A DNA stretch of 45,043 bases, from positions 1 through 45,043 of IMG/VR virus record IMGVR_UViG_3300028549_000749, one strand, 5' to 3'. The stretch comes from a virus. Positions 1 to 27,669 of this stretch are shown here, in pieces. The notes under the pieces are model-generated. The model worked only from the letters and a program-made list of their open reading frames with translations. It made no database searches and was not told the origin of the DNA. Within the stretch, counting starts at the first letter, position 1, and each line of letters opens with the position of its first letter. Made by a program: the position numbers and the translations under genes.

Positions 1-165
1 ACCCGCCTTGCATCCAAACCAAGTCAAGGATTAGGAGCAGTAAAATGAGCGATACAGTAGCAAGCCTTGGAATAAAAGTCACAACAGAAGGAGTCACAAA
101 GGCTGATACCGAGCTAAAGAAATTAGCCACGGCCTCTGAAAAGTCTGAAAAAGCTATTGAAAAAA
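1..165. repeat. Terminal overlap, copy 1 (identical to 44879-45043)
   Basis: Read base by base: acccgccttgcatccaaacc...gctattgaaaaaa is identical at both window ends. Nt 1-48 are the 3' end of the frameshift-extended tail chaperone ORF. Confidence 0.95.
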
Positions 166-3100
166 TGATAGCTACCATTAAAAAACAGAACATGATCTTA
201 CAGTCAGGCAGGGCGGCTTATACAGATTTTGCCCTTGGAACGCTCGGAGCCTCAAAAGCTGAAAAACAACTTGCGCAAAACATAGAATCCAGCATTGCGG
301 CATACCGCAATAACATCAAAGCAACAAAAGACCTTGTTACAGAAGAGCGCAAGCGTCAATCATCAATAGATGGTTTGATTGCAAAAGCTAAAGATCAACT
401 TGCAGCAGTGTCTAAATCTAAAGACCAGATGATGGAATATAAGCTGGCATTATTGGGCGCCAGCGATGCCGAAAAGAAGGCGGTGTCACAAATAAATTCA
501 AGGATTGCCGCAATAAAAGCGTCAAAACAGGCAGAAGAGGAAGCTAATAGGATGGCTAAAGAATCCCAACTCGCAAAAGAAAGAATAATTTCTGCGGAAC
601 AAAAGAGACGGGATTCTATCAATTCAACCATAATGAAATTACGGGACGAAGCGGCCGCCGCCGGTAAGTCAGAAGTCCAGCTCCTTAAATATAAGCTGTC
701 ATTGCTCGGGGCCACGGAAGCGGAAAAGAAGGAAGCCCTGGCGTTACAGAAAACAGTCAACGAGTTCAAAAGGGCTAATTCTGCTGCGAACGTATATGGC
801 GATGCTATGTCAAGGATGAAAACGATAATCGGTAGCCTGGTTGGGGCTGTCGGGCTTGTCGAGATTATAAAAATTGCGGATAATTGGTCATTGGTAAGCA
901 GTCGGTTGAAACTCGTCACCAGTGGGACCGAGGAACTTGCACGAGCAGAAGGTAAGCTCTTTGAAATTGCTCAGAGTACCCGGCAAAGCTACGAACAGAC
1001 TGGAGATCTATATTCAAGGGTTGCAAGGTCAACCAAAGAATTAAACCTTTCTCAAGATCAATTGCTTGGGATTACCGACACAATAAACAAGTCCCTTATT
1101 ATTTCTGGATCGTCAACCCAGGCAGCAGAGGCGGCCATTATCCAATTGGGTCAGGGATTCGCATCCGGTGCGTTGAGGGGTCAGGAGTTAAACTCCGTGC
1201 TTGAACAGGCTCCAAGACTTGCAGAAGCCATAGCGCAAAGCATGGGCGTAGCTGTTGGTAGTCTTAAGGATATTGCCGCCACGGGTGGAATAACAAGTAA
1301 GGTCCTGGTAGATGCCCTATCAAAAACATCAGATTCGGGGCAAAAGATATCAGCAGAATTTAGCCAGATGAATACCACAGTAGGTCAAAGCGTTGTGCAA
1401 ATCAAAAACGCCTTTGCCAAGCTCGTAGGCGAATTTGATAATATGTCAGGGTCTACAAAACTTATAGCGTCTGGTTTTACGCTGATATCCGAACACATGC
1501 GAGACATTGCAGATGTTGCGGTTATTGCCGCCATAAGTTCAATCCCAATTATAATCATGAACATAAATAAGTCCGTCCAGGCCTTGACTGTAACCATGTC
1601 TTTGAACCCATGGGTTGCGGCTGCAACGGCAATACTTGCGGTGTCGTCATCGCTCGTGATGTTTGCAGATGAGGCAGATGCAGCTGCAAGCGGGAAAAGC
1701 CTTGGGGAACTTTCTTCTGATCTTCAAAATCTTGAAATATCCCTTGAAAACCTCCACCTGATCGATAAAGACCCCATCATGGGTGGCGCAGAGAATGACC
1801 GGCAAATAGCTGACACAGAAGCCGCCATAAGATCGCTCAAGAAAGAGATCCAAAGCTTGACCGGGGTTGCCACAGTGATAACCGACATAAACAGAGCGGC
1901 CCTTGACACAATCCATACTTTTGAAAAAAAGCAGGAGTTTGAGTTATTCAAAGGCATCGAAAAGAAATATGATAACGTCCTGAAAACAGAGGTTAAATAT
2001 CTTGAATCTTCTTTGGCTCAATATAAAGCATCTGAAAGCGCAAAGCCTGAAATAGTAAGGGCAATGGAAGAAGAGATAGCCGCAAAAAGAGAAGCCGCAA
2101 GAAACAAAGAAGCGGCCGCATATAAAAGATCTCACGCATCTGAAAATGCAGCTCGTAATAAGGCCATGCGGGAACAAGAGTCGGCAGAAAAGAAAGTAAT
2201 GGCAGAGAGAGAATCTGCCCTTAAAAAGATCCAGGCCATAGAAGATGCCAGACAAGGCCGGGTTGACAAAATCATAGAAAAGCTCAAGGAGGAGATTGCC
2301 ACTTACAAAGAAGGTGAAGAGGCAACGGTACTCTACCAGCTCACACAGGAAAAGGCAGACAGCACAGAAAAGGCATTGGCCGCATCCCTGGGCGCCACAA
2401 TAGACCAGCTCAAGGAAAAGACTAAGGCCCAGGATGAATACAATAAGGCCATGGAAAAGACAGCCCCTGATAAGATTGAACTTAACCGGGAAAAGGCCAT
2501 ACTTGCCGTAAATGAAGCCATGGCTAAGGGTGCAATCCAAAGCGCTGTTTATTCTGCAAGTATCAGCCAGGTGAACACATATTTTGACAAGATTGAAGAA
2601 ACAGCAGCAGATAAAAAACTCAACGACATTGGCAAAGAGCTGGACGAGCTGACATCGTTCGACGGATCTTCATTCGGAAACACAATCGCCGACGGCATAA
2701 ATAATGCCATGATATCGATGCAAAAGCTCGGAAAGACTTATGAAGATAATGAACAAATACAGCAAAAGATAATTGATCTTCAAAAAGAACTTGCGACAGG
2801 GGAGGGCAGTCCAGAACAAAGAAAGAAATCATTAGAGGACATTGATAAATACGAAAGCGCCATGATTAAAAACCAGATATCAAGCTATCGTGAGCTTTTC
2901 GGAACAACGTCCCAACTCTTTGAGGAGAACACCAAAGAGCGCAAGGCTATGCATAATCTGGAGATGGCTTTTGCAGCAGCAGAGATAGCTATTAATCTTC
3001 AAAAGGCAGTTGGAGAGGCAGTTACGGCCATAGCTCATCAAGCCTCAGGAGGAGACGTTTATTCAGCCTTTGCGAGAGTTGCAGCCATGGCTGTTACAAT

Positions 3101-6100
3101 GGGAGCTTTAATATCTCAAATAGGCGGGAGCATATCGGGAGGGAGCACAGACGCTGAAATAGTTAAGGCAACAAACGTTACCGGCTCGGTACTCGGGAAT
3201 AGCACGGCAGAAAGCGAATCCCTAAAGAACATTGAAGAGTTTTGGGAAGATATGCACCTGGAAGATTATGCCGAGCTTAAGGGTATCCATGATGAAATGA
3301 AAGACTTAAATTCCAATATCACTGGGTTGGTATCTACATTGTTCAGAGGTGGAGCAGGTGGATTTACCGCCGCCGATATGGGGATTAATACAGATTGGGT
3401 TATGGGCGATATCGAGGAGGGGTTCAGGGGTTTGCTTGAAAGTGCAACCACTGGATTCTTAACCTCTATTTTTGGATTTAAAGACGCGATATTCGGCGGG
3501 ATAGCTGATTGGGCAAACAACGCTCTTGGTAATATTGCCGGTAAAATATTCGGAGGAGGTTCTGAAACCTCTGTTCTGGCCCAAGGCATAACGACCACGG
3601 ATGCCGTAAAGATTGGGGAGCTTATCGGGGGGTCTTTGATTGATACTATCAAGTTCGCCGATATCAAGACCGAAACAGAAGGCGGCTGGTTTCACAGCGA
3701 TAAAACAGAACTTAGCACAAGGACCGAGGATCTTGGCGCAGAAGTTGACAACTTGTTTACTCAAATCTTTAAAAACCTTGGAAACACATTTGTCTCCATT
3801 GCCGAGATAGTTGGGCAGGATGTTCAGACTGTCCAAGACTTTGCCTTTTCAATCGGAAAAATCGACCTTAAAAACCTTGAGACTTCCGACGAGATTAACG
3901 AGGCCCTTAATGCTGCCCTGTCGTCAATAACAGATCAGGCTGCAACTGCGCTATTCGGTGAGCTGGTGGGGCAATACCAGACCGTTGGCGAAGGAATGCT
4001 TGAAACGGCTGTACGAGTAGCCTCTGAGAAAATTATAGTCATGGACACATTAGATAAACTTGGTAATGCCTTTAAAGATGCTGATATCCCATCAGAAGCT
4101 ATTGCATTCTCCCAAGGACTTTTAGACATTGCTGGTGGTCTTGAGACATTCTCGGAGTATGCAAGTAACTACTATGATTCATTTTTTTCTGATGAAGAAA
4201 AACAAGTAGATATCGGTGAACTACTCACAGAGTCACTTAAAGATTTTGAGATTGATTTACCAAATACAAGAGAGATGTACAGGGATGTTGTAGATGGTCT
4301 TGACTTAACAACAGAGTCAGGTAAGAAAGCATATATTTCTATGCTTAAAATGTCGGAGTCTGCTGATGAGTATTATGCCTATCTTGAGGATGCCAACGAG
4401 GATACCAGAGAGGCCATGGAGAAGTTGACTAATACTATTACTGATGGTGTTAATAATATCCTTATAGCTTCAAAGAGAATAACAGAACAAGAACTTTTCA
4501 AAACAACATTTGCTAATAAGTATGGTGTATCTCCTGGTGAGCAGCATAGCACAGAAGCTGTGTCTTTTATTTCTACAGCATCAACTGATACAATACAGGC
4601 ACTCGCAGATTCCTTTGGTGTCACAGTATCCGGGATGCTGCAAGACATCGCAGATGAGGCTAATATGGTTGCCTCAGAGATATCTATAGCAAAAGAGAAA
4701 GCAGAAACTATTGTAAATGGCATTAATAATATACTCATGGCCTCTAGTAAACTTACAAATGAAGACCTATTCAATACCAATTTTAAAGACAAATATGATG
4801 TAACGCCCAGCGCAAGCCACAGCGCCGAGGCGGTTGACTTTATATCCACAGCGTCGCCAGAAACCATCCAGGCTCTTGCCGATGGGTTTGGTGTTACAGT
4901 TTCAGAGATGTTACAAGATATAGCTGATGAAGCTACTATGGTTGCTAAAGTTGCAGAGAGTAAAAAATCCTTAGAAATTAGAATTATGGAGCTATCTGAT
5001 GATGCAGCAGGTGCGCTTATCGAGACACGTAAGCTTGAAATTGATAGTTTAGATGCGAGTCTTAAACCACTACAAGAAATAATTTGGAATCTTGAGGATG
5101 AGTCTAAGATAGTAGAAAAAGCTAAAGAGCTGCTAAACAATAAACTTTCACTTGAAAACCAACTATATACCTTACTTGGTGATGAGGTATCCCTAAATAA
5201 AGTAATAGCTCAACAGAGAGATATTACTTTAGCTGCTATGGACATTTCACTAAGAGATACACAGAAGAAAATATGGCTTATTGAGGAAGAAAATACAGCA
5301 AGGCAAAAAGCATCTGAACTTCTAAACAATAAATTAAACCTTGATAGCCAGCTTTACACTTTATTAGGTGATGAGATATCCCTAAATAAAGTAATAGCTC
5401 AACAGAGATCTCTTGAACTTTTGGCTATGGATCAAACATTAAGGGCTACACAAGAAAGAGTTTGGGCGCTTGAAGATGAAAAGGTAGCAACAGATGTGGC
5501 TAAGGATGCGCTTGAAAAATCTATTGAATCTCAAATATCAATGTACCAATCACTTGCCGATGCAGCCGAAGAATACCTAAACAAATCAAAAGATCTACTT
5601 GATCGCTCTTTTGATGCAGAGCAGACCAATTTAACCGCTAACCATGAGGCTATGGTAAACAAACTAACAGTCAGCATGGAAGAAGCAACAAAAACAACCG
5701 AAACGTTAGAATCAGCTTTTGAATCTATTAAGTCAGCTCGGGAATCCATGGAAACAGATTCAGCGGCATTGACGTTTGAGGCTGTAACAATTCAATTGAA
5801 AAATGCAATATCAGCAGCAAAAAGCGGAGACTTTTCACAAACAGAAACTGTTGTCCCTAATCTTGGAATATTGACTTCACAAACACAGTCTGATTATGCC
5901 AGCTCTGTTGATTATAAAAGAGATTCTATCAAAACTTATCTGGCAATTTCTCAACTTGAAGATTTGACCGGTAGCCAATTAACAGAGCAGCAACAAATAG
6001 TAAAGAATCTTGAAGACCAGATAACAATTGAAAATAAACATCATGAGATCATACTTGAAAACATGCAAGCTCAGTATGATTTGGTTGTTGGCGTAGACAA

Positions 6101-6623
6101 GTCGGTTATATCTTTTGAGCAGGCCGTTACAGAGTATCAAAAAGCTCAATATGCATCAGACGGCGCAAATACTTTGCTGCAAACGCAAACTGTTCAGCTC
6201 GAAGCACAGCTAAACAGCCTCTTAAATATAAATAATGGAGTGCTGTCAGTTGCCAATGCTGTCAACAATCTATCATCGGCACAGTGGGCGTTTAATTCCT
6301 CTTTATCAGGCATGTTATTGCCTGTTTCTGGATCTGTATCTCAAGACAGTGGATTGGGCTTTGCAGACGGAGGTATTCTATCCGGGCCTTCATCTGGATA
6401 TAGCGTAAACGCAACCTTCCACGGACCCGAGGCAATCGTACCACTTGACCAATTAAATACATCAAGTTTAATATCTGAAATTAGAAAGCTGCGTGAAGAG
6501 GTATCATCTTTGCGGGCAGAATCTGCCAGGGCAAACTTTCAGATAGCAAAAAACACACAAGAGACAACGAAGACTTTAAGAAAGTTTGATTATGATGGAA
6601 TGCCGGAGCAAAGGACAGCATGA
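45..6623 (+). CDS. Tail tape measure protein (2192 aa)
   Basis: Largest ORF, immediately downstream of the chaperone pair with an ATGA overlap across the junction. RBS aggag. Long Ala/Glu/Lys-rich coiled-coil segments, central hydrophobic segments, internal repeats, and a C-terminal GFADGGILSGPSSGY..FHGPEAIVPL motif typical of tape measures. Confidence 0.9.
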   Translation: MSDTVASLGIKVTTEGVTKADTELKKLATASEKSEKAIEKMIATIKKQNMILQSGRAAYTDFALGTLGASKAEKQLAQNIESSIAAYRNNIKATKDLVTEERKRQSSIDGLIAKAKDQLAAVSKSKDQMMEYKLALLGASDAEKKAVSQINSRIAAIKASKQAEEEANRMAKESQLAKERIISAEQKRRDSINSTIMKLRDEAAAAGKSEVQLLKYKLSLLGATEAEKKEALALQKTVNEFKRANSAANVYGDAMSRMKTIIGSLVGAVGLVEIIKIADNWSLVSSRLKLVTSGTEELARAEGKLFEIAQSTRQSYEQTGDLYSRVARSTKELNLSQDQLLGITDTINKSLIISGSSTQAAEAAIIQLGQGFASGALRGQELNSVLEQAPRLAEAIAQSMGVAVGSLKDIAATGGITSKVLVDALSKTSDSGQKISAEFSQMNTTVGQSVVQIKNAFAKLVGEFDNMSGSTKLIASGFTLISEHMRDIADVAVIAAISSIPIIIMNINKSVQALTVTMSLNPWVAAATAILAVSSSLVMFADEADAAASGKSLGELSSDLQNLEISLENLHLIDKDPIMGGAENDRQIADTEAAIRSLKKEIQSLTGVATVITDINRAALDTIHTFEKKQEFELFKGIEKKYDNVLKTEVKYLESSLAQYKASESAKPEIVRAMEEEIAAKREAARNKEAAAYKRSHASENAARNKAMREQESAEKKVMAERESALKKIQAIEDARQGRVDKIIEKLKEEIATYKEGEEATVLYQLTQEKADSTEKALAASLGATIDQLKEKTKAQDEYNKAMEKTAPDKIELNREKAILAVNEAMAKGAIQSAVYSASISQVNTYFDKIEETAADKKLNDIGKELDELTSFDGSSFGNTIADGINNAMISMQKLGKTYEDNEQIQQKIIDLQKELATGEGSPEQRKKSLEDIDKYESAMIKNQISSYRELFGTTSQLFEENTKERKAMHNLEMAFAAAEIAINLQKAVGEAVTAIAHQASGGDVYSAFARVAAMAVTMGALISQIGGSISGGSTDAEIVKATNVTGSVLGNSTAESESLKNIEEFWEDMHLEDYAELKGIHDEMKDLNSNITGLVSTLFRGGAGGFTAADMGINTDWVMGDIEEGFRGLLESATTGFLTSIFGFKDAIFGGIADWANNALGNIAGKIFGGGSETSVLAQGITTTDAVKIGELIGGSLIDTIKFADIKTETEGGWFHSDKTELSTRTEDLGAEVDNLFTQIFKNLGNTFVSIAEIVGQDVQTVQDFAFSIGKIDLKNLETSDEINEALNAALSSITDQAATALFGELVGQYQTVGEGMLETAVRVASEKIIVMDTLDKLGNAFKDADIPSEAIAFSQGLLDIAGGLETFSEYASNYYDSFFSDEEKQVDIGELLTESLKDFEIDLPNTREMYRDVVDGLDLTTESGKKAYISMLKMSESADEYYAYLEDANEDTREAMEKLTNTITDGVNNILIASKRITEQELFKTTFANKYGVSPGEQHSTEAVSFISTASTDTIQALADSFGVTVSGMLQDIADEANMVASEISIAKEKAETIVNGINNILMASSKLTNEDLFNTNFKDKYDVTPSASHSAEAVDFISTASPETIQALADGFGVTVSEMLQDIADEATMVAKVAESKKSLEIRIMELSDDAAGALIETRKLEIDSLDASLKPLQEIIWNLEDESKIVEKAKELLNNKLSLENQLYTLLGDEVSLNKVIAQQRDITLAAMDISLRDTQKKIWLIEEENTARQKASELLNNKLNLDSQLYTLLGDEISLNKVIAQQRSLELLAMDQTLRATQERVWALEDEKVATDVAKDALEKSIESQISMYQSLADAAEEYLNKSKDLLDRSFDAEQTNLTANHEAMVNKLTVSMEEATKTTETLESAFESIKSARESMETDSAALTFEAVTIQLKNAISAAKSGDFSQTETVVPNLGILTSQTQSDYASSVDYKRDSIKTYLAISQLEDLTGSQLTEQQQIVKNLEDQITIENKHHEIILENMQAQYDLVVGVDKSVISFEQAVTEYQKAQYASDGANTLLQTQTVQLEAQLNSLLNINNGVLSVANAVNNLSSAQWAFNSSLSGMLLPVSGSVSQDSGLGFADGGILSGPSSGYSVNATFHGPEAIVPLDQLNTSSLISEIRKLREEVSSLRAESARANFQIAKNTQETTKTLRKFDYDGMPEQRTA

Positions 6624-10263: not shown

Positions 10264-11049
10264 TTAGGCTGTTAACTCGTTATAAAGCTCGTTGAAAGTA
10301 TCTTCATAATAATGGGGCTGAACTTCAAGTCTATTCTGGGGACTCACATCTTTTTGACCGAACTTCAATCCCTTTGTTGTCAATGCTTTAAATGTCTTCG
10401 CCCCTTTGCTTGAAGGTCTTTCTTTTTCCTCAAGATATCCTGCCACCACCATAAGGGCATTAAATACCCTAACATTTATTGGGAGATTGTTCTTTTTTAA
10501 AAGCTCAGTTGCTGAGAATACCACCCTTGCCTTTTCCACATATTCCGGGAGAAAGGAGCTGCTGATATTATTTGCCTTGTAAACCATTGAGACAATATCA
10601 ATCTTTGACGCATCCGAATAATTTAACATCCTGGCGATTGTCTCCGCTCCCATCAATTGGCATTGAACGGTTTCCGGGATTTGTGCCGGGGCTTTTACTC
10701 TCCGAGATACCCTTTCACATTCAATGAAATACTTCCTTGCAGCTCTTCCTTTGTCGTTTTTCTCAACCATGGAAAGCTCTTTTGCCATGTCAAGAGAAAG
10801 GGCATATTCTACACGGGCTTTAGAATTTGATTCCACAAAATTATGGAATTGAATAAAATCAATATCTTGTGTAAACCCATACTGCTCGATCCTGCCTTTT
10901 ATCCATGTTGAATAATCTTGACCAACTTCAAGGAAAGAATGAAGTTCCCGAGCGTCAACTGAATTGACAACCTCTCCCCCGATTGCAGCTTCTGAAACTC
11001 TTACCAGTTGATTTATTGCAGAACTTGTGCTAAAGTTTCCTACTGTCAT
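10264..11049 (-). CDS. ant: Antirepressor, AntA/AntB N-terminal domain (copy 1)
   Basis: VVNSVDARELHSFLEVGQDYSTWIKGRIEQYGFTQDIDF...MAKELSMVEKNDKGRAARKYFIECE is the AntA/AntB-type N-terminal signature. Paralogous to 25262-26044. Confidence 0.75.
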   Translation of the reverse strand: MTVGNFSTSSAINQLVRVSEAAIGGEVVNSVDARELHSFLEVGQDYSTWIKGRIEQYGFTQDIDFIQFHNFVESNSKARVEYALSLDMAKELSMVEKNDKGRAARKYFIECERVSRRVKAPAQIPETVQCQLMGAETIARMLNYSDASKIDIVSMVYKANNISSSFLPEYVEKARVVFSATELLKKNNLPINVRVFNALMVVAGYLEEKERPSSKGAKTFKALTTKGLKFGQKDVSPQNRLEVQPHYYEDTFNELYNELTA

Positions 11050-12531: not shown

Positions 12532-13245
12532 TCATTCCTCCAATGCCGTAATGATATCAAGGCAATTCTGACGATGCCGCCTCGAATATAGTTTTTTAAG
12601 ATTGTCTTTTCGCTCCTGGTAATCCATACCAAGTTCAATCAAGGCAGTATTTACTTTTTGCATGTCGGCAATGGCTGTGATAATTGGCTCTGGCATATGG
12701 TCCCTGAAACGCTCGTTTATATCGATATCGTGAATCTCACACCATTTCTTTTTTGTAACGCCCAGGACTATTTTATAAATCAATGTATGTTCATTTGAAA
12801 AATGATGTGGCATTGTTTCTTTTCCCAGTTCATTCCTGATATTCAAAAGAGCATCGGTCATAGGCTTGCATCCAAACCTTGCTATTTCATCTGATCTTTT
12901 ACGAATAGCCTCGTTTTTTATGAACGATTCCATTTTGTTGAAAGCATCAAGGAAAGACTCCCTCCATTGTGCCGCTTTATCTCCGGTGAATTTCATTATC
13001 AAGCAAGAGAAACCATCTCGTGTCATAAGGTAATATTTGTTCTTTTTACCGGAACCATCCTTATATTCACTCAACGCAAAATTGCGTTCAGTGAATTGCT
13101 GAGATTGACCCGATTTTTCTATAGCCCTAATGACGTCGGAATGTCTTTTCCCATAACTCAAAGCAACTTCTATAGAGGAAACTCTTACTCCGCCATTAAT
13201 CACAAACTCAATTCCATCAATTACCTTGGGTAAATTCTTCATCAT
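12532..13245 (-). CDS. rha: Rha-family phage regulatory protein (copy 1)
   Basis: VRVSSIEVALSYGKRHSDVIRAIE...YYLMTRDGFSCLIMKFTGDKAAQWRESFLDAFNKME matches the Phage_pRha pattern. The start was chosen at the ATG with the RBS gaggagaaag. By eye roughly 60% identical to 18453-19163. Confidence 0.8.
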   Translation of the reverse strand: MMKNLPKVIDGIEFVINGGVRVSSIEVALSYGKRHSDVIRAIEKSGQSQQFTERNFALSEYKDGSGKKNKYYLMTRDGFSCLIMKFTGDKAAQWRESFLDAFNKMESFIKNEAIRKRSDEIARFGCKPMTDALLNIRNELGKETMPHHFSNEHTLIYKIVLGVTKKKWCEIHDIDINERFRDHMPEPIITAIADMQKVNTALIELGMDYQERKDNLKKLYSRRHRQNCLDIITALEE

Positions 13246-13375
13246 CTTTCTCCTCTTTAACATCGTCTTTGATGTGCTGTAAAATTATCTCGGTCATTGT
13301 AAGGCCCTTTTCAACTGCATAATGTTTAAACTTTTTATGCAACTCCTCGTCAATTCTCATTACGAACTTTTTCAT
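13217..13375 (-). CDS. Ribbon-helix-helix protein (52 aa) upstream of Rha copy 1
   Basis: Not in the track. MKKFVMRIDEELHKKFKHYAVEKGLTMTEIILQHIKDD... RBS aaggaggttattaaATG. Confidence 0.6.
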   Translation of the reverse strand: MKKFVMRIDEELHKKFKHYAVEKGLTMTEIILQHIKDDVKEEKDDEEFTQGN

Positions 13376-13404
13376 TTAATAACCTCCTTTTTTGTGTATG
13401 GCTC

Positions 13405-13433
13405 AATATATATCTACACGTTAACAAAGTCAA
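13405..13433 (-). promoter_or_regulatory. Promoter of the leftward RHH-Rha...Ant operon
   Basis: Minus strand TTGACT-N17-TATATT, about 30 nt upstream of the RHH start. Confidence 0.6.
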
Positions 13434-13450
13434 GAACTATTTCATAAAAC

Positions 13451-13479
13451 TTGACACCATGAATAAAATATGAGAAATA
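13451..13479 (+). promoter_or_regulatory. Divergent promoter of the + strand cassette
   Basis: TTGACA-N17-GAAATA with TG at the extended -10 position (tgaGAAATA). Confidence 0.45.
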
Positions 13480-13485
13480 TAAAGC

Positions 13486-13604
13486 GTGGGCGGAAATGGC
13501 CATTTCCGAGACTGGTTCCCGCAAGCCAGCCGTCCCACACTCCATACATTGCGGAAAAGAAAGACCCCATTACGGCTTGCGGAGCTGTAGATGGGGTTTT
13601 TTAT
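13486..13604 (+). ncRNA. Structured 5' leader / candidate riboswitch-like attenuator (or stand-alone sRNA)
   Basis: P1 gtggg(13486-90)/cccac(13534-38). P2 cggaaat-ggcc-atttccg (13491-13508). P3 ctggtt-cccgca-agccag (13512-29). A terminator hairpin plus T-run follows. ccgcaagcc (13519-27) is perfectly complementary to ggcttgcgg (13574-82). Confidence 0.5.
13564..13604 (+). terminator. Intrinsic terminator inside the leader, 50 nt upstream of the first cassette ORF
   Basis: accccattac / gta(g)atggggt is a 10-bp stem with one bulge, followed by ttttttatt. Confidence 0.65.
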
Positions 13605-13655
13605 TCCCGGATCAATCAGCAATAACGCTGACAGCACATATATGGAGACTCAAAA

Positions 13656-14216
13656 ATGGAAAATGGTTTCGGAACTACTGACATTCTGACTGGTAGAGGG
13701 CTTGGTTTGGCTGGATTTGGTGGATATAATTACGGCGGGCAGTATGCGGATGTAAGCTCTAATGCCGTGCGAATCAACAGAAATGAGGGCGTAACCCGTG
13801 ATGCTGCATCTTGCGTTACTGGAGTTCTTGGAGCCAGCCTTGATCGTATCTCCGCACAGAACTTTGAGGGCAGATTCAACGCTGCCATTACGTCCTTGAG
13901 AGACGGGCAGTTTCAGGGAGAACTTAGGCTCAGTGACAGCTTGGCAGCCATTAGGCTTGATGCTGCTCATCAGGCGGCGGCGGCGGCTCAGTGTTGTTGT
14001 GAACTTAAAATTGAAATGTTGAAATGCTGCTGCGAAACTCAGAAACTCGTATCCGCTGAGGGGACCGCAACCAGGGAACTTATCAACCAGAACACAATCC
14101 GGGCAGCCGTTGACCAGAACAACATCAATGCCACTGTAGGTGCAATCAATGCCAATGCCAATGCTAATGCAAACGCAATTGTCCAGGCCATTAACAGCCA
14201 GTGCAGCAAGTCTTAA
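13656..14216 (+). CDS. Orphan protein with two Cys triplets (186 aa)
   Basis: RBS ggagactcaaaaATG. Gly/aromatic-rich N-terminus, Ala-rich helix, QCCCELKIEMLKCCCETQ, and an Asn/Ala-rich C-terminus (INANANANANA). No family recognised. Confidence 0.7.
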   Translation: MENGFGTTDILTGRGLGLAGFGGYNYGGQYADVSSNAVRINRNEGVTRDAASCVTGVLGASLDRISAQNFEGRFNAAITSLRDGQFQGELRLSDSLAAIRLDAAHQAAAAAQCCCELKIEMLKCCCETQKLVSAEGTATRELINQNTIRAAVDQNNINATVGAINANANANANAIVQAINSQCSKS

Positions 14217-14226
14217 TCGTTAAACA

Positions 14227-14248
14227 GGCGGGGCCAATGCGCCCCGCC
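14227..14248 (+). other. GC-rich intercistronic hairpin
   Basis: ggcgggg...ccccgcc directly after the stop of the 186-aa ORF, with no U-tract. Confidence 0.4.
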
Positions 14249-14261
14249 ATAAAGGAATATC

Positions 14262-14528
14262 ATGACAGAACCTAAAGATTTGCTTGAAAAAGAATCAACT
14301 CCATATGACATTGGCGGTCCTAATGCAAAAAAGGGAATGGTTTTAACAGACGCTGATCTTGCAACAAAAGAGGCCGTGCAGTGGAATGGTTTTGGTTTTG
14401 TTTGCAAGCTGTGCGGGATCCCAGCGGTTTTGCATTTTATGAAGTATTGCGGCAATTGTGGCGCTGCCGTTAATGTTCAATCAAATAAAGTTAACCGTTA
14501 TCTCGAAAAAAGAGAGGAGCGATATTGA
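14262..14528 (+). CDS. Zn-ribbon protein (88 aa)
   Basis: CKLCGIPAVLHFMKYCGNCG (CxxC-x11-CxxC). RBS aaaggaatatcATG. Confidence 0.65.
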   Translation: MTEPKDLLEKESTPYDIGGPNAKKGMVLTDADLATKEAVQWNGFGFVCKLCGIPAVLHFMKYCGNCGAAVNVQSNKVNRYLEKREERY

Positions 14529-14734
14529 TGGAAGAAAAATCGGATCTTGAAATGGCAATGGCTGCACTGACCGATGAAGTTGGTGGAGTTAAGGAATATC
14601 TTGAGATTGCAGAATATTGCAAGGACCAGGAGCTTAAAGCCATCGCCATGAACATTGCAGCAGACGAAAAGAAACATGCTAATATCCTGATGCAGTTTGT
14701 GGCAAAGCATGTGCAGGCCATGCTTTCAAAATAA
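14528..14734 (+). CDS. Two-helix ferritin-like protein, encapsulated-ferritin (EncFtn)-like
   Basis: TGATG overlap with the upstream stop. In the track numbering DEVGGVKEY...QELKAIAMNIAADEKKHANILMQFV gives E18, Y25, E48, H51. This has the same spacing as the EncFtn ferroxidase residues E32/Y39/E62/H65 (recalled from the R. rubrum protein). Confidence 0.55.
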   Translation: MEEKSDLEMAMAALTDEVGGVKEYLEIAEYCKDQELKAIAMNIAADEKKHANILMQFVAKHVQAMLSK

Positions 14735-14741
14735 AAATAAA

Positions 14742-14767
14742 CCATCCCGTAATTTTGTGCGGGATGG
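14742..14767. terminator. Terminator hairpin between convergent genes
   Basis: ccatcccg-N10-cgggatgg. On the minus strand it is followed by tttatttttatttt. It closes both the long leftward early operon and the + cassette. Confidence 0.65.
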
Positions 14768-18452: not shown

Positions 18453-19163
18453 TTATTCTTCTATCTTATTGATCTCTTCAAGACATGCCTGTAAATGCCG
18501 CTTGGTGTAAAGTTTGTCAAGCTTGGCTTTGCGGTCTTCATATTCCATTCCAAGCTCAATCAAATCAGTGTTCACTCTTTGCATATCTGCGATGGCTTTT
18601 ATCATTGGGGCGGGCATATGATCCCTGAATCTTTCTTTGCTGTCAATGCCATGAACTTCGCACCATTGCTTTTTTGTGGCTCCGAGAACAATTTTATAAA
18701 TCAAAGTGTGTTCATTGGAATAATGGAAAGGCTTTGTGTTTTTTCCTGCTTCCGTTCTTATATTAAGCAAGGCTTGGGCCATCGGTCTGCATTCAAGTTT
18801 TGCTTCATCATCTGATTTTTTGCGCTCATGCTCGGAAATTATGAACGCTTCCATTTTGTTGAATGCTTCAATAAAATCAACTTTCCATACGGCAGCCTTA
18901 GCCCCAGTAAACCCCATTGCAAGAAAAGACATTCCATCTCTTGTTAAAAGGTAATGTGGCCTTCTTTGATTGTTCTTGTCTGTGTATTCGCCCAGCGTAA
19001 AATTGCGCTCGGCAAAACCAATTGGACAATCAAGATTTCTTATAGATCTCAAAACTTCTTTGTGATCTTTTTCAAATTTGTTTGCTATTTGGATTGATGA
19101 CACACGGATATTTCCGTTAACTGAGAACTCAATTCCATCAATAACACTTGGCACGTTTTTCAT
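18453..19163 (-). CDS. rha: Rha-family phage regulatory protein (copy 2)
   Basis: IRVSSIQIANKFEKDHKEVLRSIRNL...HYLLTRDGMSFLAMGFTGAKAAVWKVDFIEAFNKME. ATGA overlap with the RHH gene. Confidence 0.8.
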   Translation of the reverse strand: MKNVPSVIDGIEFSVNGNIRVSSIQIANKFEKDHKEVLRSIRNLDCPIGFAERNFTLGEYTDKNNQRRPHYLLTRDGMSFLAMGFTGAKAAVWKVDFIEAFNKMEAFIISEHERKKSDDEAKLECRPMAQALLNIRTEAGKNTKPFHYSNEHTLIYKIVLGATKKQWCEVHGIDSKERFRDHMPAPMIKAIADMQRVNTDLIELGMEYEDRKAKLDKLYTKRHLQACLEEINKIEE

Positions 19164-20933: not shown

Positions 20934-21671
20934 TTAAACTTCAATCTTTAAGCAATCGTCAATTACGTGACTCTGGCCGTGTAGTTCTGCGAAAATCATA
21001 ACCTTTGATTTAACATCCTGGTAAATATCCTTGTAAAACAGCTTTTTGTTCATGCCGACTCTAAGGCCCCTATCGATTATCTGTTCTGCGGAACTTACTG
21101 TCATGAGTTGTTGGGTTGACATCACCTCCCGCAAGTTTTTATATTTTCCCTCAACTATAAATAAAAGTCCGTTCATCATCTTGGTTATAGACGTGTAATA
21201 CCTGTGGGCATTATTGCTGCCCTGTGATTCTGCATATTCAACAAATCTTTGCATTTCATCTGTTGTTTGTTTTCTTACGAGTTTTCCGGCATCCCTGGTT
21301 ATTTGGTATGACGGGTTGTGTTTGTGTTCTCTAAGTGCAGATAAGCTTTTTTTAATATGAACAAAATCATTAGCAAGTCTTTCCTTGAAATCCAAAACAA
21401 GATCAGTGTTTCTAAAAATAGACCCAAGGAAAATAGTTTGCTGTTCATTTAGGAGGTATTCCTCAACTGGCCTTCCTGCTGTTTTTGAAGGAACCTTATG
21501 AATAATAAACCGTTCCAGGAACGACTTATTATTCTCCAGCCTGAAAAACCTTTCCTTGTATTTATTTATCAATCTCAAAACTTCGTTGTGTTCTCTGTTG
21601 AATCCTTGAGATATTAGAAAGGTTCCTGCTCTTGGTTCATCATCGTGAAGATTTACAATTTCATTTACCAT
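20934..21671 (-). CDS. Rha-like regulatory protein (copy 3, divergent C-terminus)
   Basis: TFLISQGFNREHNEVLRLINKY...GRPVEEYLLNEQQTIFLGSIFRNTDLVLDFKERLANDF fits the Phage_pRha pattern. Confidence 0.55.
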   Translation of the reverse strand: MVNEIVNLHDDEPRAGTFLISQGFNREHNEVLRLINKYKERFFRLENNKSFLERFIIHKVPSKTAGRPVEEYLLNEQQTIFLGSIFRNTDLVLDFKERLANDFVHIKKSLSALREHKHNPSYQITRDAGKLVRKQTTDEMQRFVEYAESQGSNNAHRYYTSITKMMNGLLFIVEGKYKNLREVMSTQQLMTVSSAEQIIDRGLRVGMNKKLFYKDIYQDVKSKVMIFAELHGQSHVIDDCLKIEV

Positions 21672-25130: not shown

Positions 25131-25265
25131 TTGAAAAAATTAGAGTGTAAACGTTGTGGTCATAAATGGATTCCAAGGGTTGAAGGTAAACCAGTTGCTT
25201 GCCCTGCTTGCAATAGCCGAAAATGGAATGAAGAAAAAACATATAAAAAGGAGCTTGAAAAATGA
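25131..25265 (+). CDS. Zn-ribbon protein (44 aa)
   Basis: Not in the track. TTG start with the RBS aaggagattggt. (M)KKLECKRCGHKWIPRVEGKPVACPACNSRKW.. ATGA overlap with ant copy 2. Confidence 0.5.
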   Translation: MKKLECKRCGHKWIPRVEGKPVACPACNSRKWNEEKTYKKELEK

Positions 25266-26044
25266 ATCAAGTAACAACTATCAACACTTTGGAAGTAACA
25301 AAGCAATTCATTGGGACAGAAAAGGTAAATTCAGTGGATGCCAGGGCGCTGCATTTTTTCCTTGAGAGCGGACAAGAATTTGCGGCATGGATTAAAAACA
25401 GAATTACGCAATACGAGTTCACGGAAGGTATTGATTTTATTAGGTTTGATAATTCTATCAAAGCCGAAAATACCTATATTAATACCAAGGAGTACATAAT
25501 CACCATATACATGGCAAAAGAGCTTTCCATGGTTGAGCGTAACGAAAAGGGAAAGGAGGCCAGAAAATATTTTATCGAATGCGAAAAAAAGGCAAAGACA
25601 GCCTTGCCAGGAACCTTTGCAGAAGCTCTCCGGCTTGCAGCGGACCAGGCCGAACAGCTCGAAGCCCACAAGTTACAGATTGCCATGGATGCCGCCAAGA
25701 TTGCCCATGATAAGCCCCTGGTTGAATTTGCCCGAACAGTTGAAGGCACAGACAAGAAGATATCAATCGGAGACATGGCCAAGCTATCCGGAAAGATTGG
25801 CCGGAACAATCTATTCAAAAAAATGCAAGAAGAAAAGATCCTTATATCCCATGGCCGGGATCACAATAAACCATATCAGCGGTATATTGACCAGGGTTAT
25901 TTTGAGGTTACCGAGACTATTGTTAAGCGGGCGGCAGGCGATGTAATCACATTTACCACCCATGTTACCGGCAAGGGTCAAACTTGGCTTATGGGCAAGA
26001 TTAACGCTTGGTGTTCGACTGAAATCATTTTCATATCGTGTTGA
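25262..26044 (+). CDS. ant: Antirepressor, AntA/AntB N-terminal domain (copy 2)
   Basis: KVNSVDARALHFFLESGQEFAAWIKNRITQYEFTEGIDF...MAKELSMVERNEKGKEARKYFIECE. Confidence 0.75.
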   Translation: MNQVTTINTLEVTKQFIGTEKVNSVDARALHFFLESGQEFAAWIKNRITQYEFTEGIDFIRFDNSIKAENTYINTKEYIITIYMAKELSMVERNEKGKEARKYFIECEKKAKTALPGTFAEALRLAADQAEQLEAHKLQIAMDAAKIAHDKPLVEFARTVEGTDKKISIGDMAKLSGKIGRNNLFKKMQEEKILISHGRDHNKPYQRYIDQGYFEVTETIVKRAAGDVITFTTHVTGKGQTWLMGKINAWCSTEIIFISC

Positions 26045-26329: not shown

Positions 26330-26834
26330 TCTACATGAAGGTCAATTAAAAAAAGACGTTGTAATTGAGCTGGTAAGAGAATGCCCTTGTGGGGAAATAT
26401 TTACCACCACAACGGAAACGATCAATGATTATGGAGAAATGTGGTGCGAAAAGTATGGGTTTTGTACTCAAAACTGCATGGAATACTTTCTTGATTATGA
26501 TGAATTTAAGGATTCAATACGGGACAACAACGGGCGAGTCGATTTTAACTCAAGTGGTGTTAAATGGAAAGAATGGGTTGAAAATAAAATAAAAGTTTAT
26601 GTGGGACATATGCCTTTGGATGATCTTTTTGAAATCCAGGCAGGAATCATGCAAAGCGTTGGGCAAATACAAGCCCTTATGGATCTTGGAGTCAGCTTTG
26701 AAGAAGCTGAAGATATCGCATGGAGTGATAAATCAGATAGATTGGTAATAAAAGATGGCAAGTGGTGGTTAAGAGAATCCAGTATTAAAAAACAAGAAGC
26801 AATTGAAGACAAGGCAAAAAATGGCCAACACTGA
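26322..26834 (+). CDS. Hypothetical protein (170 aa), Cys-rich N-terminus
   Basis: ORF in operon context. No family recognised. Confidence 0.6.
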   Translation: MNNLHEGQLKKDVVIELVRECPCGEIFTTTTETINDYGEMWCEKYGFCTQNCMEYFLDYDEFKDSIRDNNGRVDFNSSGVKWKEWVENKIKVYVGHMPLDDLFEIQAGIMQSVGQIQALMDLGVSFEEAEDIAWSDKSDRLVIKDGKWWLRESSIKKQEAIEDKAKNGQH

Positions 26835-27669
26835 TATCAGAATAGCCGTTTCGTTTAAAGGCCATCGCAAAAGGAAACGTCTTCAGCGTCTCCTTGGTTT
26901 TGGAGCGGAGACTTACCTGATAGATTTGTGGATAACGGTTGCAATGGATGCCCCGGAAGGGGTTTTAGTTGGATGGGACGAGGAAGATATTGCAGATGCT
27001 TGTGGATGGACAGAAGATCCAAAGAAACTCATTAATGCTTTAATCGAATCAAATTGGATAGAAAAAGATGGCGACGGGAACTATTGTTTGCATGATTGGT
27101 GTGAAAATCAGTCTTGGGCTTGTAATGCAAAAATTAGAAGCAATGCAGCAAAAAAAGCTGCAAAAGTACGATGGGATGGAAATAACAGTTCTGATTTTAT
27201 GCAAACAGCATGCACATACGATGCGGAGGGCAATGCGGATTTATGCGGACCGCATGCGGAGGGCAATGCCCCTTACCTTACCTTACCTATCCTTACCTTA
27301 CCTAAAGAAAAAACCTTCTCCCCTGAACTTTGCAAGTTCACGGATAATTTTATAAAATTTGTTTTGAAGGAAAGATCGAACAAAGCACCAAAGGAAACCA
27401 AGTCACTCATTGAAAACTCTTTAGATACTCTTGATAAACTCATAAGGCTTGATGGGTTTACATTGGAATATATTCAAGACGTAACAAGGTGGGCCATCAA
27501 TGATGAATTTTATTCCGCTAACTTTTTTTCCCTGGCCCCGCTTAGATCAAAAAGCCCAAATGGTGCAACCAAGTTTGCAAATATGGCCAGCAAGTATGAC
27601 AAGCAAAACAACAGTGTTAACAATAAAACCGAAAACAATGAGAGGATGGAAAAATGGGTAAACCGGTGA
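26821..27669 (+). CDS. Replication initiator / replisome-organizer-like protein
   Basis: Position upstream of the loader-like and DnaB genes. Winged-helix-like N-terminus (LIDLWITVAMDAPEGVL...DIADACGW...LINALIESNWIEKDGDGNYCLHDW). Iterons lie inside the gene. ATG at 26821 is preferred to the TTG at 26803. Confidence 0.5.
   Translation: MANTDIRIAVSFKGHRKRKRLQRLLGFGAETYLIDLWITVAMDAPEGVLVGWDEEDIADACGWTEDPKKLINALIESNWIEKDGDGNYCLHDWCENQSWACNAKIRSNAAKKAAKVRWDGNNSSDFMQTACTYDAEGNADLCGPHAEGNAPYLTLPILTLPKEKTFSPELCKFTDNFIKFVLKERSNKAPKETKSLIENSLDTLDKLIRLDGFTLEYIQDVTRWAINDEFYSANFFSLAPLRSKSPNGATKFANMASKYDKQNNSVNNKTENNERMEKWVNR
27221..27305. repeat. Iteron cluster / candidate replication origin inside the initiator gene
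   Basis: ATGCGGA at 27221, 27233, 27243 and 27254 (spacing 12/10/11). The 16-mer ATGCGGAGGGCAATGC occurs twice. (CTTAC)3-CTATC-(CTTAC)2 at 27272-27302, then an A-rich run. Confidence 0.55.

Follow-up and report, generated by a model that had tools for sequence, protein, structure and literature searches.

Between positions 13486 and 13655 of a 45,043-nucleotide (nt) viral sequence, IMG/VR record IMGVR_UViG_3300028549_000749, a short stretch with a marked potential to fold lies directly upstream of a three-gene cassette. The question raised by this locus is whether the stretch is expressed as an RNA and what such an RNA does for the genes behind it. The whole sequence is referred to here as the window, and all coordinates are given in window numbering. 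A sequence-only reading had described the stretch as a three-way junction (3WJ) followed by a terminator, and had considered it a candidate riboswitch-like attenuator. That anatomy is right but incomplete: a promoter, a helix that pairs an anti-Shine-Dalgarno (anti-SD) strand with the Shine-Dalgarno sequence (SD), and a further hairpin named P6 have to be added, so that the element is a two-domain, two-lock leader. Judged against its homologues, it is probably a cis-regulatory, default-off 5' leader of about 170 nt that controls a phage accessory operon.

A covarying family of leader RNAs

The window leader is one of eight distinct versions, which were located via contigs encoding relatives of the cassette proteins. 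An identical copy (L002) is present in Logan, and the seven further versions come from metagenome contigs: L003, L084, L113, L110 (identical to L111 and L112), L186 (identical to L187), L188 and L192. The leaders are 69-82% identical, and the first-gene products of the homologues are 37-67% identical to that of the window. Compared pair by pair, the leader exceeds the adjacent coding sequence (CDS) in conservation in 25 of 28 cases. The elements discussed below are the following.

13451-13456, + strand: -35 hexamer TTGACA, with TTGAC(A/C) invariant in 8/8 leaders
13471-13479, + strand: weak -10 element extended by TG (TG-a-GAAATA), with a predicted transcription start site (TSS) at or within 1-2 nt of 13486
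13486-13538, + strand: domain 1, the 3WJ formed by P1, P2 and P3, with covariation among homologues
13486-90 and 13534-38, + strand: P1 (GTGGG / CCCAC), stem of the 3WJ
13491-13508, + strand: P2, an 18-nt palindrome with the invariant GGCC loop at 13498-13501
13510-17 and 13524-31, + strand: P3, with the invariant CCCGCA loop at 13518-23 and the core CTGGTT-CCCGCA-AGCCAG at 13512-29
13540-13546, + strand: anti-SD CUCCAUA, 5' strand of helix P4, paired with the SD in the minimum-free-energy structure of 8/8 leaders
13549-13555, + strand: site 1, UUGCGGA in the linker, complementary to the P3 loop; AUUGCGGAAA is invariant in 8/8
13559-13602, + strand: intrinsic terminator (A-tract, GC-rich bulged hairpin, U6 run at 13597-13602), seen in the fold and by covariation
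13577-13583, + strand: site 2, (U/C)UGCGGA in the terminator loop, complementary to the P3 loop; UGCGGA is invariant in 8/8
13616-13631, + strand: hairpin P6 (UCAGC-AAUAAC-GCUGA) between the terminator and the SD, present in 8/8
13641-13647, + strand: SD strand UAUGGAG (GGAG at 13644-47), 3' strand of P4; the start codon is at 13656

The three stems, two complementary 9-mers, a CGGAAA at 13552-57 and a terminator stem at 13564-97 are all found where the sequence-only reading had placed them. Its hairpin followed by a run of T is also confirmed, with the correction that the six T residues occupy 13597-13602 and do not begin after 13597. The proposed succession of 3WJ and terminator is reproduced by RNAfold, and compensatory changes keep P1, P2, P3 and the terminator stem intact in the eight leaders. 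For the 3WJ alone, an ungapped MAFFT alignment of five sequences, which is free of model-fitting bias, has 98% of its cells paired, against 33-49% in slid controls. Changes on both sides were found in 14 of the 20 pairs, supporting the covariation of P1-P3 that had been named as a check, and none of 500 shuffles was as good. When the terminator is included, 95.3% of the cells are paired in all eight sequences (slid controls, 41-56%), 20 of 40 pairs changed on both sides and again 0/500 shuffles did as well; this alignment had been fitted to the model and is therefore biased in favour of the structure. The terminator stem contributes 20 pairs, seven of them changed on both sides, and is 92% paired among the eight homologues.

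The second domain covaries as well. P4, the terminator and P6 together are 92.6% paired in a MAFFT alignment; 12 of their 34 pairs show changes on both sides, and no shuffle out of 500 was as good. P4 comprises 7-10 contiguous pairs in every leader and exchanges U:A for A:U and A:U for U:A beside a fixed UCCA:UGGA core, two positions being swapped on both sides; a matrix of cognate and non-cognate P4 duplexes gives partial support only. Three of the five pairs of P6 changed on both sides. Since P4 and P6 are conserved 3' of the terminator, the comparison shows that selection acts on the read-through RNA too, and not only on a terminated one.

Against this background of changing stems, a few positions are invariant: GGCC in the loop of P2, CCCGCA in that of P3, the A that follows P2 in the junction and, further on, AUUGCGGAAA in the linker and UGCGGA in the loop of the terminator. 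Every flanking stem thus varies across the leaders, while the P3 loop and its two complementary sites do not change. The CGGAAA of the linker had been taken as a duplicate of the 5' arm of P2 that could displace it. This duplication is a feature of the window only, since the P2 arms vary in the relatives, and it is GCGGAAA that is invariant.

The pace at which the stems change is illustrated by L186 (3837-4000) and L188 (705-868), whose downstream CDS are 100% identical while multiple compensated changes separate their P2 and P3 stems, a pattern suggestive of modular recombination or of a fast turnover of stems in the RNA. The P2 of L188 is the same as the P2 of L192.

Folding energy is no discriminator of strand, since the reverse complement folds as well as the + strand. 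Assignment of the RNA to the + strand follows from about 40 G.U cells in the eight-leader alignment, which would be A.C mismatches on the - strand, together with the upstream promoter and the clean U-run 3' of the hairpin, both on the + strand; an RNA of the minus strand was therefore rejected. A leader peptide or small open reading frame (ORF) was rejected too: the ATG in P2 is not conserved, and indels of 1-2 nt among the leaders break every frame, which rules out a coding constraint.

No known family accounts for the element. Rfam 15, which includes the purine, TPP, ZTP, fluoride, guanidine, glutamine, c-di-GMP, preQ1, THF, NiCo, Mn, C4, abiF and pRNA families, gave no hit in the window at the gathering threshold, and in E-value mode the region 13300-13800 returned only a chance match to mir-583 (18 bits, the threshold being 80). 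The earlier statement that no known riboswitch class fits is borne out by these searches. The alignments show a conserved structured RNA on the + strand, and it belongs to a new family outside Rfam.

This family seems to be confined to few places. A covariance model built from the eight leaders (R1) found no further copy in the window or in related loci that lack the RNA; the leader had no blastn match in the phage and plasmid collections; and exact or gapped RNA patterns retrieved chance matches only from IMG/VR, JGI metagenome contigs and GTDB genomes, which evidently lack this phage group. Protein-guided scans of IMG/VR returned one RNA-less relative and one irrelevant match, and a full-text literature search with strings of the leader sequence yielded one unrelated paper only. 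The leader RNA is rare, with eight examples from a handful of gut-type metagenomes and one phage group.

Promoter, terminator and buried ribosome-binding site

The leader is preceded by a promoter-like sequence of conserved geometry. The distance from TTGAC(A/C) to the start of P1 is fixed at 29 nt in the homologous leaders (28 in L003), the spacer is 17 nt in 8/8, a TG is present at -15/-14 in 7/8, and the end of the -10 hexamer lies 6 nt before P1 in seven leaders and 5 nt before it in L003. From this geometry we infer that transcription starts at the first base of P1. Two divergent promoters stand back to back at 13405-13456, with only about 18 bp between their -35 boxes: TTGACT/TATATT faces the leftward RHH-Rha operon, and TTGACA the rightward leader. 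The sequence of the leftward promoter region, CAAAGTCAAG, is kept in L003, L084 and L113 despite different leftward genes.

The 3WJ and terminator together (13486-13605) fold with -47.2 kcal/mol and z = -3.47 in RNAfold, and the full leader has a folding z of -3.87. The strands of the junction are only 0, 1 (A) and 2 (G-Y) nt long. The terminator has the sequence features of an intrinsic terminator, a 14-bp bulged stem with a CCCC/GGGG base followed directly by U6; a simple terminator scan missed it because of the bulge and the long stem. The distance from the U-run to the ATG is only about 50 nt and is filled by P6 and the SD. No second promoter was found between the terminator and the ATG, where the sole promoter-like match overlaps the start codon. 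The locus therefore has the layout promoter, non-coding RNA (ncRNA), terminator and protein gene, with no promoter between the last two.

RNAfold gives the same two-domain structure for every homologue. The anti-SD:SD helix P4 closes a junction that encloses the terminator hairpin and P6, the terminator hairpin is lengthened by A-tract:U-tract and GGAA:UUCC pairs, and the SD is buried in all eight leaders.

One loop with two identical partners

The sequence-only reading had drawn attention to 9-nt complementarity between P3 and the terminator loop, CCGCAAGCC at 13519-27 and GGCTTGCGG at 13574-82. It is present in the window, but the full length is specific to its lineage, the core conserved among the leaders being 5-6 nt, CCGCA(A):(U)UGCGG. 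A perfect inverted repeat of at least 9 nt arises in about 3% of shuffles of the region, so the 9-nt pairing alone is only modestly unusual. Viewed across the family, the leader loop is complementary to repeated sites in its own transcript: CCGCA(A) faces two copies of (U)UGCGG, site 1 and site 2, and these sequences are invariant in 8/8. Calculated for isolated duplexes, pairing of the P3 loop is feasible with either UGCGG copy in every leader (-8.9 to -11.8 kcal/mol), the duplex with site 1 ranging from -8.9 to -9.8 kcal/mol.

The extended pairing between P3 and the terminator ranges from -22 to -9.7 kcal/mol. Non-cognate combinations often equal cognate ones, and there is no cognate-specific covariation. 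Its extent in the individual leaders is as follows.

Window: 9 bp, -19.8 kcal/mol
L186 and L188: 10 bp, about -22 kcal/mol
L192: 9 bp including one G.U, read from the sequence directly
L084 and L113: 8 bp or bulged, -15 to -16 kcal/mol
L110: -11.4 kcal/mol
L003: -9.7 kcal/mol

For transcripts truncated at the terminator loop, the calculation prefers the alternative fold to the 3WJ in three cases, the window, L186 and L188, with a margin of about 2 kcal/mol.

A possible two-lock mechanism

These features can be combined in a scheme with two successive locks. A sigma-70-type promoter, with a good -35 and a TG-extended weak -10, would start the RNA at the first base of P1, and a strong intrinsic terminator about 115-117 nt from the start would end most transcripts. 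This would be lock 1. Lock 2 would act in the read-through RNA, where the linker CUCCAUA would bury the SD in P4. The control point may be the CCCGCA loop of P3, which would pair with either of the two invariant UGCGG copies. Pairing with site 1, in the linker beside the anti-SD, would create a pseudoknot that pulls the anti-SD off the SD and so represents the open, ON state. Such a pseudoknot would be topologically incompatible with P4, because the strand connecting its two halves is the anti-SD, and it would also remove the GGAA:UUCC extension and shorten the base of the terminator helix. Pairing with site 2, in the terminator loop, would be a kissing contact that leaves P4 intact and clamps the two domains together in a closed, OFF state. 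The domains could then dock side by side, P4, P1 and P3 amounting to about 20-24 bp and the terminator helix to about 20-22 bp. For the lineage of the window, where pairing with site 2 reaches 9-10 bp, this contact could also delay the folding of the terminator. An effector, which might be a protein, a ligand, an ion or an RNA, would set the balance between the two sites.

The toggle of the P3 loop is put forward with less confidence than the default-off, two-lock leader itself. A bolder proposal, which we regard as rather unlikely, is that the leader represents a new class of riboregulator in which one loop chooses between two identical sites and so integrates an effector into both termination and translation. 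This proposal has two forms: the effector may be a small molecule or metal, which would make the leader a new riboswitch class guarding a cassette of Cys-cluster and ferritin-like proteins, or the short RNA may have a second role towards a cassette protein, as its RNA antitoxin or sponge.

Several observations weigh against the two-lock account or parts of it. All homologues were found through the neighbouring protein, so that the linkage between RNA and gene is partly a matter of ascertainment. Related cassettes without the RNA (L001, L085, L185, L189) carry quite different upstream regions, from which it follows that the leader is dispensable for the cassette. The P3 loop and both of its sites are invariant, so covariation cannot test their pairing. 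The 3WJ is nearly fully paired and has no obvious ligand pocket. Finally, no conserved, mutually exclusive antiterminator was found among the eight leaders: the alternative fold wins in only three of them, and in the other five the 3WJ is the more stable by 4-8.5 kcal/mol, so the extended antiterminator is not a conserved feature. The original idea of a conditional terminator is a reasonable one, and a structured RNA with a terminator does stand directly before a gene; what the homologues bear out only in part are the competing pairings named with it.

The RNA-less loci L189 and L085 have entirely different upstream regions, which suggests that the cassette has acquired different control modules. 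L189 has at 3830-3935 a hairpin-rich leader with its own terminator-like stem, and L085 has at 700-950 two consensus promoters and an AT-rich leader.

Alternative explanations and known systems

A covarying structured leader followed by a terminator and an anti-SD is the classic layout of a riboswitch, there is no conserved leader peptide, and an EncFtn-like ferritin-fold protein is among the downstream products. A true riboswitch would bind a small molecule or ion through domain 1 and the pseudoknot between the P3 loop and site 1, and would thereby control the terminator and access to the SD; given the Cys-cluster and ferritin-like products, its ligand could be a metal or a redox-related compound. 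This explanation seems improbable. Junction strands of 0, 1 and 2 nt are atypical for a ligand pocket, which could arise only via a pseudoknot, and the conserved bases lie in terminal loops rather than in internal loops or junctions. A paired junction with conservation in hairpin loops points to RNA-RNA or RNA-protein recognition instead. The family also lacks a conserved alternative antiterminator and a match to an Rfam class, and its only eight examples belong to one phage group. Another reading, which resembles type III antitoxins, is given a similarly low probability: the abundant terminated RNA of about 115 nt would be the functional product, binding and neutralising, or feeding back on, a cassette protein that is supplied by occasional read-through. 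The model is RCd22, from a prophage abiF locus of C. difficile, which has a SigA promoter whose TSS precedes the ATG by 168 nt, a terminated ncRNA 100-130 nt in length, short and read-through transcripts with no promoter between, and which both attenuates expression and binds the toxic protein (bioRxiv 10.1101/2025.04.15.648962). The layout of the present locus matches that one, a doubly repressed product may well be harmful if over-made, and the two UUGCGGA repeats could be protein-binding sites. The matches end there, as neither the abiF motif (RF03085) nor another Rfam family is recognised, the region 13300-13655 has no tandem repeats, no cassette protein has a PADLOC match, and for the first product the prediction is a long coiled coil instead of an enzyme-like toxin. 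The conservation of P4 and P6 adds that selection also acts on the read-through RNA.

A protein partner of a different kind is envisaged if the leader is compared with the antitermination systems of phages. Lambda nut and HK022 put consist of promoter-proximal hairpins followed by a terminator, an arrangement that matches the present one, and invariant loops on freely covarying stems are typical of hairpins recognised by proteins. A phage factor or RNA polymerase bound at the 5' junction domain would then permit stage-specific read-through. This reading is less probable still, for it explains neither the helix that sequesters the SD nor why a threefold complementarity links the P3 loop with sites 1 and 2, and no N-like or Q-like protein is found among the annotated parts of the window. 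Possession of its own promoter and terminator, and of loops that are self- or mutually complementary, would also suit a stand-alone small RNA (sRNA) acting in trans, possibly self-pairing through GGCC and through kissing of P3 with the terminator loop, with its adjacency to the gene being incidental. This is quite unlikely: the RNA always lies directly upstream of the same gene, and its anti-SD covaries with the downstream SD that it matches. The idea of further copies or trans targets in the window was dropped, since a search with the covariance model gave no additional copy and TGCGGA shows no enrichment. The least probable of the readings takes the TGCGG(A/G) motifs as DNA sites for a phage protein, such as the replication initiator, and not as RNA partners. 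Four ATGCGGA repeats do occur at 27218-27262 in the replication-initiator gene, and a DNA site would be expected to stay invariant without covarying; but the leader motifs sit exactly in hairpin loops of an RNA with covarying stems, at +33 to +98 from the start and not at the promoter, and the 6-mer lacks any overall enrichment.

Set beside known systems, the default-off leader has relatives in logic rather than in sequence. C4 of P1 and P7 (RF01695) and CI of P4 are junction-type sRNAs derived from the leader of the operon that they control, and their loops are complementary to repeats in the same transcript. The complementarity of a leader loop to repeated sites of its own transcript is shared with them as a resemblance only: there is no match to RF01695, the targets lie in the linker and terminator loop and not at the ribosome-binding site of the next gene, host range and regulated genes differ, and there is no evidence that the leader is processed by RNase P, the UCCA after P1 being explained as anti-SD. 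A tRNA-like element or RNase P substrate was accordingly rejected, since ARAGORN finds no tRNA and the UCCA, 0-3 nt after P1, is variable in position and pairs with the SD. RCd22 and the abiF motif (RF03085) share with the leader a phage-borne locus, a promoter of the sigma-A/sigma-70 type, an RNA of about 100-130 nt with a terminator and a TSS about 170 nt before the ATG; the leader differs in having no match to abiF in sequence or structure and no Abi_2 domain encoded downstream, and in adding the SD-sequestering helix. With HK022 put and lambda nut, to which it is not known to be similar in sequence, it has in common the hairpins at the 5' end of a phage transcript and the terminator behind them, whereas those systems lack an SD-sequestering helix and loop-site complementarity. 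Tandem-platform riboswitches and attenuators likewise combine a structured, sensor-like 5' domain with an intrinsic terminator and an anti-SD:SD helix. The leader differs from them in its lack of a known aptamer class and of a conserved antiterminator, in the near absence of conservation in junctions and internal loops, and in its candidate toggle, which is one loop with two identical sites. By mechanism it belongs with the attenuator- and riboswitch-like leaders; RCd22 and C4/CI are similar in logic, and it is a member of none of these families.

The cassette and its genomic setting

The genes probably governed by the leader, and the hairpin that closes them off, are arranged as follows.

13656-14734, + strand: three-gene cassette
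13656-14216, + strand: first gene, a 186-amino-acid (aa) Gly-rich, coiled-coil protein with Cys clusters
14262-14528, + strand: second gene, an 88-aa CxxC...CxxC protein (Zn-ribbon)
14525-14734, + strand: third gene, a 69-aa EncFtn-like ferritin-fold protein
14741-14767: hairpin closing the cassette, with a U-tract on the - strand side only (-19.8 kcal/mol, z = -4.6)

The 186-aa protein belongs to a rare family (36 clusters among 5.8 billion) and has no match in Pfam, PHROG, NCBIfam, PADLOC or PDB. Its AlphaFold model (pLDDT 82, from an alignment of 33 sequences) combines a Gly-rich, disordered N-terminus with a single helix about 150 residues long. The helix holds two CCC triplets 11 residues apart, and in the modelled coiled coil these could possibly constitute a metal or disulfide layer. 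An exclusive linkage of the RNA to the 88-aa Zn-ribbon protein was considered and withdrawn, as divergent copies of this protein occur in RNA-less cassettes.

The closing hairpin lies between the end of the cassette and a convergent RyR-domain gene. Because its U-tract is on the minus-strand side only, it would mainly stop leftward transcription before this enters the cassette in antisense. The cassette is an autonomous, moron-like unit, as it runs rightward in an otherwise leftward block and is closed off by this hairpin. The leader itself occupies the gap between the cassette and a leftward Arc/RHH-like gene (13217-13375).

The window looks like the complete 45-kb genome of a tailed phage, with genes for a terminase, portal, major head, tail-fibre and endolysin-like protein, DnaB, a replication initiator, Erf/exonuclease and several Rha/Ant proteins. 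Assignment of a host via the portal protein was uninformative, the best phage matches being about 34% identical and spread over phages of Proteobacteria. Five paralogous regulators or anti-repressors of the Rha/AntA type are present (10264-11049, 12532-13263, 18453-19163, 20934-21671 and 25262-26044), and no integrase or CI-type repressor was seen among the scanned ORFs. A single ORF of 2192 aa at 45-6623 is presumably a tail tape-measure or tail-associated giant protein. The replication-initiator/DnaD-like gene (26803-27669) contains four copies of ATGCGGA 10-12 nt apart and then CCTTA(CC) repeats, at 27218-27305, which is probably a phage origin with iterons. The core of these iterons, TGCGGA, is the same hexamer as the invariant sites of the leader.

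Implications

The leader adds to the RNA biology of uncultivated phages a structured family that is absent from Rfam. Its general importance is limited by its rarity unless more distant relatives exist. Its logic is unusual, as two independent locks are combined with one loop that has two identical partners, and the compact, modular design may serve as a genetic part with a tight off state. If an effector is found, it would reveal the signal that releases the cassette and would provide a handle on the function of its genes.

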